Origin: a virus
Taxonomy: Duplodnaviria > Heunggongvirae > Uroviricota > Caudoviricetes
Length of the DNA: 42,303 bases
Direction: 5' to 3' (one strand)
Virus record (IMG/VR): IMGVR_UViG_2851976983_000005
In this document: piece after piece, positions 15,549 through 18,500 of the stretch
How the letters are laid out: each line of letters starts with the position of its first letter
Position numbering within the stretch: position 1 is the stretch's first letter
Position numbers: made by a program

Positions 15549-18500
15549 TTACTCCTTCGCGGAGGCAGTATTCCGTCAGGAGCAGGCCTGCGTATCTTCT
15601 ATCGGAACCAGCGTTTGCAGGAAGATGATCAGTGGCGGAACCTGTATTAATTACGCGGGTTAACAATTCGTGCTCTTAATAATACCAGGCATATCAGGCT
15701 GATGAACGTAAAAAATCGTTTTACATCAGTAAGATTATTATATACTGTAAATATAAACAGTGGTTATGCATACAGCATTGCGTGTGGTGTCATAGGAGGA
15801 AAGATGCAGGACTATTTTTTGGAGTCTTTGAAGCTCCAGCGCATTGATTTTTTTCTTAAGCTTGTAGCGGCTAGTGAGTGTAGTGATGAAGAGAAGGGGC
15901 TGGCTCTGCAGTGGGTTTCTGAATTGACTGATGAACTCATGGCAAAAATCAGAACCCACGAATACAACCGCTCAATGGATGTCATCAGCTGAGGTGACTT
16001 TTATGCGCATTGAAATAATGATCGATAAAGAGCAGAAGATTAGCCAGTCTACCCTGGACGCCCTTGAATCCGAGCTTTACCGCAATCTGCGCCCCCTGTA
16101 TCCCAAAACGGTAATTCGCATTCGCAAAGGTAGCTCTAACGGTGTGGAACTGACCGGACTGCAACTGGACGAAGAAAGAAAACAAGTGATGAAAATTATG
16201 CAGAAGGTGTGGGAAGACGACAGCTGGCTGCATTAAGAAACGTTGCTGGCGTCTGAACTTGCTTCTGGCGTCAGCAAGGTTGAACAACGAGCCCTTGCGA
16301 GGCGTTAGCTCTGTAGTGCATGTCTATGCCGCATGAGATCGCATGATCGTTTGAGGATCGTTTTTGCTAAGGCCCGCCAGAACTGGCGGGCTTTTGCGTA
16401 GATCATGCAGGTGCATGAAAACCACTACATAAAGCGGGCAGGCGTGGCGGGGATACGAGCGCGCGCAACAGGTAAACCCCTAGACTTGTTAAAATATTTG
16501 TCATATAAATCAAACATCAAACCTAAGGGAGGCAGAGGATGATCCAGCCAAAAGTTTTTATATCCTATAGTTGGTCAAGTAAAACTCATCAGCAACATAT
16601 CAAAGATATAGCTGAACGATTGGCGGCAGATGGAGTTGAAACTGTCATAGATATTTATGACTTGAAAGAAGGGGATGATAAAAATTATTACATGGAAAGA
16701 ATGGTTCAAGATGAAACGGTTACGCATGTTTTAGTTATTTGTGATAAAAAATACTCAGAAAAAGCCGATTTAAGAAAAGATGGTGTCGGTGTTGAGTCGA
16801 TGATAATTTCCCAAGAAATATATTCATCCGTGTCGCAGTCCAAATTTATACCATTAATATTTGAGTACAAAGATAATGGAGAGCCGTATACTCCAATCTT
16901 TCTGAAGTCTAGAATCTATATTGATTTTTCAACACCAGAAAAAGAAAATGATAATTGGGAACGTTTAATCAGGTTGCTTTATGGAAAACCAGAATTTACT
17001 AAGCCACCATTAGGTAAGCCTCCGGTTTATTTAGAGCAAGACACGTCAAAACCGACGTATGAAATTCATGCAAAATTTCAAACTTTAAAATCAGCTGTCT
17101 TAAATCAAAAGCAGACATTAAAGGATTGCAGAAGGCAATTTTTAGAGGTGTGCCGAAATTATTGTATCTCACTACAAGTCGTAACAAACCCAACTACTGA
17201 AGATTTTGCAGCGGAAGTTTTGCAAATTCATAAAGAGCTTATTGCCGTTAGGGATGCCATTACAGACTGGGTTTTACTTGAGGGTGATACGCAGGGCGAA
17301 GACTTTTCCAAAGCACTATTACAGTTTATGGAAGTAATGTTAGCGATTAGAAATCGTCCGAAAAATGTAAATTCATATAATGAAATATGGTTTTTGCCCC
17401 ATAAGATTTTTGCGTATGAAACGTTTTTATATATTTTGGCGGCTTTAATAAAAATTGAAGCTTTCCAGCATGTACATACATTACTGCATACATCTTATTT
17501 GCTACCCGATCATATAACCAGTCCGGGAATGGAGTTTGCTAATTACAGTGAGTTATATTTAAGCTCTGATTACCTTCAAAGTAAATTGTCCCCTGAAAAC
17601 TATCGACTGTATTCCCCTGTTGCTGAGTTAGTAAAGCAAAGTGCAACTAGAGATGATGTGTCTTTCGATGATTTGAAACAAGCTGATCTTGTTGCTCTTA
17701 TGATATCCTTCATTAATCCCAGTATTTTTTGGTACCCGCAAATGTTGTTGTATTCCGGGCACTATGAGAAATATCCTCTATTTACAAGAGCAATACAGCA
17801 TAGAGGATTCAAGAGTATTGCAGTTATTACCGGAATCGATGACAGTAAACTTTTGGCTCAAAAGCTGACAGAGGGTGAGGCCCAGCGAAATACTAGCAAC
17901 TGGTATCATTTCGGTTTTAATAGAGACTTTCTCAATCAAATGAATGTTAGTCGCCTAGATAGTATTGAATGAAAATTAGAGGGCGCTTTGCAAAGCGCTC
18001 TCTGTATTAGTTTTCAATATCTAAGGTGTAGGGCTCAAAGCGGATCACTTCTTCGCCCAGCCAGTCGTTAAGCTCCTGCAGTCGCTTCTGCAGCGGCATC
18101 AGCTCGTTGCGGACAAAGACGCGGCTGGCCTTTTCCACATCACCAAAGCCGCCGGTATTGTTGGGAATGATGCCCATCATCTGCGGCGGCACGCGGTGAG
18201 CAGCCATCATGTCATCACGGCTCACGTTCTTGATGTTCAGAAATTCATCCTTTGCTGCAACTTCCGACAACGGGATTATCTGGATGCCGTCCTTTTTACC
18301 GTTGGGCGAATACATAAACAGGTTGCGGAAGTTGCCCGGCCCTTTGGCGCTTTTCATTGCCTGGCGGATATTGTTCACGTCCTCCTGATTCTGTGCTGCG
18401 TCGGTCATGTACATGATGAAACCCGCGTGGCTGCCGTTGATGTAATACTTCCGGCGAAACAGCGTTGCTGACTCGTTGAGCAGGGTTGACGGGATGGCGG

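Follow-up and report, generated by a model that had tools for sequence, protein, structure and literature searches.

The viral record IMGVR_UViG_2851976983_000005, a stretch of 42,303 nucleotides referred to here in its full length as the window, carries between its cos-like site and its portal gene a gene for a protein of 477 amino acids. Judged by its sequence, this protein is an intact copy of the described single-gene SEFIR anti-phage defence system, already known and ordinary. It is highly probable that the gene, a member of the single-gene SEFIR (bSEFIR) family, is horizontally acquired AT-rich cargo in the gpA-gpQ hotspot of a P2-like prophage located downstream of ssrA in Escherichia coli, and that its product senses phage and aborts infection by hydrolysis of nicotinamide adenine dinucleotide (NAD+). 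The gene and the parts of its product are as follows.

16539..17972, + strand: SEFIR defence gene, 477 amino acids, ATG start; identical to RefSeq WP_001399243.1, "SEFIR domain-containing protein"
16548..16967, + strand: N-terminal SEFIR (TIR-like) domain, residues 4-143, predicted NAD+ glycohydrolase effector
16794..16796, + strand: Glu86 codon, within the GVGxE motif; candidate for the catalytic glutamate
17052..17969, + strand: C-terminal all-alpha domain, residues ~172-477, presumed to be phage-sensing or regulatory, after a disordered linker (residues 153-171)

Family membership and domain architecture were determined directly by profile and structure comparisons. The N-terminal region matched Pfam SEFIR (2.2e-14, residues 4-143) and TIR_2 (4.9e-14, residues 6-144), both above the gathering scores, in agreement with the TIR-like signatures that an earlier note on this DNA had picked out and that all fall within the first 94 residues (KVFISYSWSS at residues 5-14, THVLVICDKKYSEKADL at 62-78 and GVESMIISQEI at 84-94). 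The N-terminal 155 residues aligned to the Bacillus cereus SEFIR crystal structure 5Y8E (E=2.5e-29, and 1.2e-53 with the family profile), and the best sequence and fold matches of the domain were SEFIR structures, followed by TIR domains that included the NADase SARM1 at 12.3. The placement in the TIR superfamily was therefore correct, the domain being more precisely a SEFIR, or TIR-related (STIR), domain. Its SEFIR match is at least as good as its TIR match, the rule by which Millman et al. selected the family.

The homology to the bSEFIR family extends over the full length of the protein, including the C-terminal domain. The PADLOC bSEFIR model PDLC03957 matched residues 3-475 in a single stretch (E=1.2e-102), phrog_11745 of PHROGs ("unknown function") aligned residues 2-477 with its positions 5-482 of 482 (E=1.9e-223), and homologues of 470-490 amino acids aligned end to end. 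The C-terminal domain, which had been said to match nothing recognised, thus belongs to the described SEFIR/bSEFIR family. Likewise, the supposed single-gene or non-canonical module is indeed a single gene, but one that corresponds to the canonical SEFIR system of Millman et al. (2022), itself made up of one gene. The novelty implied earlier was not upheld, since the system is known and the locus already appears in Table S5 of Rousset et al. (2022).

In the predicted structure the C-terminal domain folded as a bundle of about 15 helices, with predicted local distance difference test (pLDDT) scores mostly above 90. Pfam, profile and structure searches revealed no Pfam family, no solved relative and no recognisable effector motif in this domain, and a Walker motif was absent among its invariant residues. 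A search with the C-terminal domain only, over 1.84 billion representatives, recovered 678 relatives; in the best 150 of these the domain started at about residue 150 of proteins of about 480 amino acids. Fusions of the domain to other effectors were looked for among the same 150 representatives, where it was paired with TIR_2/SEFIR at the N-terminus in 73 of 74 full-length relatives, indicating that the two domains form an almost fixed pair. The C-terminal domain is presumed to act as a phage sensor or regulator. A stand-alone paralogue of it (317 amino acids, no SEFIR/TIR domain) was observed in the Gammaproteobacteria metagenome-assembled genome OZ242171.1 (locus L064, 6827-7780), about 300 bp 3' of a full-length SEFIR gene and 32% identical to residues 168-471 of the window protein. 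This is the sole such case in 80 species-level loci, a curiosity that forms no pattern.

Residue conservation was analyzed in 104 close and 74 distant relatives. E86 was invariant in both sets, and in the distant set (23-44% identity) the invariant positions were G82, E86 and P119 only. E86 lies in the GVGxE loop that connects helix C to strand D, which is the position of the catalytic glutamate in TIR NADases such as SARM1 and bacterial TIRs. By this analogy E86 would be the catalytic glutamate. D38 was invariant or nearly invariant in both alignments and is the candidate counterpart of D40 of the Bacillus protein. The SEFIR open reading frame is intact and keeps every invariant residue of the family.

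The defence phenotype, its dependence on the aspartate of the SEFIR interface and the depletion of NAD+ are taken from the literature on the Bacillus homologue. In B. subtilis, a SEFIR protein from Bacillus confers protection against phi29, and replacement of an aspartate implicated in SEFIR-SEFIR contacts (D40A) abolishes this defence (Millman et al. 2022, preprint). Later papers citing that work present SEFIR as a single-protein system whose N-terminal SEFIR domain depletes NAD+, with ADP-ribose and nicotinamide as products, and which the phage NAD+-reconstitution pathway NARP1 counters. The window protein would be made in the lysogen from its own promoter, and its all-alpha domain (residues ~172-477) would keep it inactive until a component or a consequence of infection by a competing phage is sensed. 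Upon activation the N-terminal SEFIR domains would meet via SEFIR-SEFIR contacts and, using Glu86, would split NAD+ into ADP-ribose and nicotinamide; the loss of NAD+ would starve the infecting phage and abort the infection. The sensor role of the C-terminal domain, catalysis by E86, expression in the lysogen and the activity of the present copy are the parts of this scheme that we infer.

The organization of the system as a single gene was analyzed across the family. The searches recovered over 1200 homologues, almost all 470-490 amino acids long, and 206 species-level genomes carry one; the phyla represented are Verrucomicrobiota, Planctomycetota, Chloroflexota, Nitrospirota, Bacteroidota and Proteobacteria. 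No conserved partner gene was detected in 80 species-level loci, and no neighbour family occurred in more than five. The commonest one (5/80 loci) was a type I restriction subunit, and neighbours elsewhere included type I restriction-modification and SIR2-like genes. In the window the cargo (16477-18006) likewise holds one gene, as expected of a stand-alone gene that has no obligatory partner.

An alternative is that the SEFIR domain makes a nucleotide second messenger from NAD+, in the manner of ThsB, which activates an effector elsewhere or the C-terminal domain itself. Signal-generating enzymes exist in the TIR superfamily, PADLOC gave weak matches to the TIR portions of signalling proteins (SAVED_TIR, 5.5e-05), and AC1, a TIR protein with two transmembrane proteins at the same P2 hotspot, has been proposed to work by signalling (Rousset et al. 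2022). However, the cargo has no ThsA, SAVED, STING or transmembrane partner, none is conserved in the 80 loci, and the C-terminal domain lacks a recognisable effector motif. Moreover, the Bacillus gene defends alone and is reported as NAD+-depleting. Signalling is therefore a decidedly unlikely mode of action, and abortive infection by direct NAD+ hydrolysis is preferred.

The boundaries of the cargo were determined by comparison with other prophages, and the following features were located around the gene.

16368..16394, + strand: terminator-like (intrinsic) hairpin with an 11-bp G+C-rich stem, GCCCGCCAG-AACT-CTGGCGGGC, then TTTTG (sequence, RNA fold)
16441..16459, + strand: cos-like core GGCGTGGCGGGGATACGAG (sequence), with the left edge of the variable slot next to it at ~16476/16477
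16481..16509, + strand: candidate sigma-70 promoter TAGACT-N17-TATAAA, read in the sequence, putative and weak
16525..16532, + strand: ribosome-binding site AAGGGAGG, a strong Shine-Dalgarno sequence 6 nucleotides before the SEFIR ATG, read from the sequence
17977..18004, both strands: palindrome with a 12-bp stem, resembling a bidirectional terminator, between the SEFIR gene and the portal gene convergent with it

Most of what the earlier note had described here was found again: the 477-codon reading frame, the ribosome-binding site, the hairpin upstream and the palindrome downstream, and the location between cos and the portal gene, which lies at 18007..19047 on the - strand and is convergent with the SEFIR gene. 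The contrast between an AT-rich gene and a GC-rich phage was also borne out, the G+C content being 0.32-0.39 over 16500-18000 and 0.52-0.60 in the flanking phage genes. The start of the gene had been placed at 16481, which belongs to the promoter region; the reading frame begins at 16539. Promoter-like hexamers can be read as claimed (TAGACT-N17-TATAAA), but a consensus scan upstream of the SEFIR gene reported no qualifying promoter, the -10 hexamer of the candidate ending in A.

The sequence 16300-16476 is conserved in 1282 E. coli records, and conservation of the backbone stops at 16476. Similarity to other P2-like prophages resumes at about 18026-18032, inside the last codons, at the 3' end, of the portal gene. 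On this basis the cargo spans ~16477-18006 and consists of one promoter region, one gene and one terminator. The hairpin at 16368-16394 (-23.6 kcal/mol, z=-4.74) lies inside the conserved stretch and is therefore phage backbone 3' of the DinI-like gene, outside the cargo. The palindrome has a folding energy of -18.1 kcal/mol on the + strand (z=-4.75) and -13.4 kcal/mol on the - strand. The core GGCGTGGCGGGGATACGAG has 14 of the 19 bases of the P2 cos core, and resembles the cos of P2 and 186; the P2 cos 19-mer itself gave no match when as many as 3 mismatches were allowed. Its designation as a putative cos draws on this likeness, on the conservation of the backbone and on the cos-proximal hotspot described by Rousset et al. 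(2022). A 45-codon reading frame at 16405-16542, overlapping the SEFIR start codon, was not accepted as a gene, since it runs across the conserved cos region common to prophages with other cargo.

The surroundings form a P2-like (Peduoviridae-type) prophage in which integrase, CI, CII, methylase, gpA, the DinI-like gene and cos are followed by the SEFIR gene, portal, terminase, scaffold, capsid and the remaining late genes. In the stretches that were compared, E. coli strains 504211 and 503440 show 100% identity to the window. Downstream of smpB-ssrA come the prophage and, beyond it, the island; ssrA is a classic integration site. The tmRNA gene ssrA was found at 41244-41606 on the - strand (Rfam, 295.8 bits; tag ANDENYALAA) and smpB at 41821-42303, also on the - strand. 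The gpA-gpQ interval beside cos is a defence hotspot of P2, which itself carries old and tin (Rousset et al. 2022), and the SEFIR gene occupies this slot on a mobile element. The idea that TIR-superfamily defence cargo resides in this hotspot is supported by the family membership of the protein together with the listing of the present locus in Table S5.

Of 5426 E. coli genomes, only 7 carry the SEFIR gene, at 99-100% DNA identity. Klebsiella phage ST15-OXA48phi14.1 carries a 99.2%-identical protein in the same slot, and from cos, including an identical GGCGTGGCGGGGATACGAG, through the SEFIR start codon it is identical to the window. Three extra genes of this phage lie on the opposite side of cos and are absent from the window, indicating that the SEFIR gene is a self-contained unit. 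Two extra genes in this phage (locus L002, 4725-5785), of 72 and 280 amino acids, sit between the DinI terminator and cos, a slot that is empty in the window; neither gave a Pfam or PADLOC match, and they are candidates for unknown cargo. The annotated 69-residue reading frame over cos in ST15-OXA48phi14.1 is probably spurious.

In the cos-portal slot of other P2-like prophages, SEFIR proteins were found with 87% (Klebsiella), 61% (Pectobacterium), 49% (Hafnia) and 45% (Silvania) identity. In Kosakonia oryzae CP065358.1 (locus L003, 7473-7724) a gene with 80% identity stands beside an 84-residue remnant of a P2-type portal in otherwise chromosomal surroundings; the Kosakonia gene thus seems to have been retained after loss of its prophage. 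The recurrence of SEFIR genes at this slot in four genera, the Kosakonia copy that has apparently outlived its prophage and the fact that other cargo of the P2 hotspot restricts P2 relatives would fit a gene that mainly serves the prophage, as an addiction or stabilization module or as an exclusion factor directed specifically against related P2-like phages or P4-like satellites with which the prophage shares cos and terminase. On the other hand, no P2-type portal or terminase was found near the gene in the other 78 of the 80 species-level loci, which lie outside P2-like phages, and no antitoxin-like partner occurs in the 80 loci. We regard a primary role of this kind as very improbable; it is moreover compatible with phage sensing and NAD+-dependent abortive infection, from which it differs in the beneficiary and not in the mechanism.

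Next to the portal gene, a stand-alone paralogue of the ATPase domain of the terminase large subunit (241 amino acids; 19044-19769, - strand) lies between the terminase and portal genes and overlaps both by 1-4 nucleotides. It matched Pfam Terminase_6N (7e-13), is 31% identical to residues 145-368 of the prophage's own TerL, and its Walker-type motifs look degenerate (SRQIGAT to MHQAGAD, YLDEY to YVSEY). The paralogue was present in 17 of 5426 E. coli genomes, including all 7 with the SEFIR gene, and, at more than 90% identity, in only three records of the phage collection, which come from Yersinia phage vB_YpM_MLG42 and from Escherichia phage 500465-1; ST15-OXA48phi14.1 has the same SEFIR gene without it. 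The paralogue may be a pseudo-ATPase acting on packaging. The joint occurrence of SEFIR and this rare paralogue in all 7 E. coli prophages would fit the packaging-centred conflict considered next, and may equally be simple linkage in one prophage lineage.

A more speculative proposal is that the C-terminal domain represents a novel type of phage sensor. Divergent SEFIR genes (45-100% identity) have repeatedly been captured at the cos-portal slot of P2-like phages, in at least five enterobacterial genera, and this could reflect a specialized, long-standing role in the competition among P2-like phages, their P4-like satellites and rival phages. The domain might, for instance, recognize a component of packaging or of the virion that the phage carrying it evades. 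Taken as a whole, this proposal is unlikely.

The prophage is damaged. IS100 (IS21 family; istA, istB) at 13565-15366 on the - strand interrupts the gene of the replication endonuclease gpA, leaving fragments at 11276-13555 and 15423-15650, and the prophage is probably unable to replicate. E. coli 503440 (locus L010, NZ_CP025881 2456737-2467337) has the prophage region twice, the copies lying about 36 kb apart. In the second one the SEFIR gene is broken into pieces and the DinI gene carries a frameshift, the result either of tandem duplication followed by decay or of an error in sequencing or assembly. The disrupted gpA and the fragmented SEFIR gene of strain 503440 could suggest an inactive passenger in a decaying prophage. 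However, the reading frame in the window is intact with all invariant family residues, the gene is 99-100% identical in DNA in the 7 E. coli genomes and its product 99.2% identical to that of the Klebsiella phage, and the fragmented copy adjoins a second gene with a frameshift and could be an artefact of assembly. We consider loss of function most improbable. Still less credible, and hardly to be entertained, is a role as a TIR/SEFIR virulence factor disturbing Toll/IL-17 signalling in animals, of the kind suggested for the bacterial Tcp proteins, given the spread of the family in free-living phyla (Verrucomicrobiota, Planctomycetota, Chloroflexota, Nitrospira), the lack of any sign of secretion, the location in a defence hotspot and the anti-phage function shown for homologues.

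Several points weigh against NAD+-dependent abortive infection by the window protein. In the preprint of Millman et al. and in later papers, the SEFIR experiments used a Bacillus protein expressed in B. subtilis; the P2-borne E. coli protein is only ~29-50% identical to the Firmicutes proteins with data, and SEFIR is outside the eight P2 hotspot systems that were cloned and tested by Rousset et al. (2022). The predicted catalytic loop (residues 80-87) is of low model confidence, and the SEFIR promoter is weak by consensus and unreported by the promoter scan. Finally, in a prophage damaged by IS100 selection on the cargo could be relaxed, yet the reading frame is intact.

Further genes of the window were recorded. 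The coordinates in the list of reading frames are too long for the two backbone genes just upstream of cos, 15702-15992 and 15931-16236 (both + strand), for which RefSeq calls a 62-residue hypothetical protein (phrog_698) and a 77-residue DinI-like protein; both are conserved backbone. The island upstream of the prophage (1-5267) contains a HEF_HK histidine kinase (1-1719), a Response_reg_2 protein (1703-3469), a 138-codon reading frame with no family match and a P4-type second integrase (3996-5267, - strand). Between the two integrases lies a 348-codon reading frame (5521-6567, - strand), shorter and hypothetical in RefSeq, which gave no Pfam match and a weak PADLOC match (2e-4) to a two-transmembrane-helix "Effector" model.

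The discovery value of the locus is small, the family, its defence role, the depletion of NAD+, the hotspot and the specific locus being already in the literature and in PADLOC, DefenseFinder and RefSeq. Its practical worth is that of an intact SEFIR cassette, compact (~1.5 kb), well delimited and natively compatible with E. coli, which would be a convenient model for questions on the family such as its trigger and the role of the C-terminal domain.

The protein was compared with known systems that share parts of its organization. It is not a Thoeris component: as the earlier note had stated, a ThsA-like gene (SIR2/SLOG or Macro/TM) is lacking in the cargo and flanks, and there was no PADLOC Thoeris match. 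For CBASS or Pycsar only the weak SAVED_TIR match (residues 5-69, 5.5e-05) was obtained, no cyclase gene is nearby, and by predicted structure and fold comparison the all-alpha C-terminal domain is unlike STING or SAVED. Nor does it resemble the TIR-NLR or Avs-like STAND proteins, since Pfam detected no NTPase or TPR family in its 477 residues, whereas the tabulated domain matches of the P4 TIR-NLR run past residue 820. The eukaryotic SEFIR domains (IL-17 receptors, Act1/TRAF3IP2) belong to signalling adaptors and have 14-24% identity to the present domain; they are not known as NADases.

The proposed mode of action is like that of DSR1 and DSR2, in which one polypeptide couples an NAD+-consuming effector at its N-terminus to a helical sensor at its C-terminus and the abortive infection by NAD+ depletion is countered by phage NARP1. 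They differ in having a SIR2 instead of a SEFIR/TIR effector, in the absence of detectable C-terminal sequence similarity and in being about twice as long; the present protein is thus not a DSR family member and the resemblance is in logic only. The other cargo of the P2 gpA-gpQ interval (old, tin, AC1; Rousset et al. 2022) and the TIR-NLR of P4 occupy the same cos-side slot as short, AT-rich, self-contained cassettes, some of TIR type. The SEFIR gene differs from TIR-NLR in having no STAND NTPase or TPR, from AC1 in having no transmembrane partners and from Old in having no ATPase/TOPRIM. BcSEFIR (PDB 5Y8E/5Y8F; Yang et al. 2018) was solved as the SEFIR domain alone, with neither a C-terminal domain nor an activated assembly. 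The SEFIR protein of Bacillus sp. NIO-1130 (Millman et al. 2022; PADLOC "bSEFIR", DefenseFinder "SEFIR") has the same N-terminal SEFIR domain and C-terminal domain of ~300 amino acids in a total of ~480. Both are single genes on mobile or defence-island DNA, and the alignments of relatives show conservation of the invariant glutamate and of the aspartate of the DxxD region. The present gene is proteobacterial, phage-borne and placed in the P2 cos-portal slot, and is only ~30-50% identical to the Firmicutes proteins compared.

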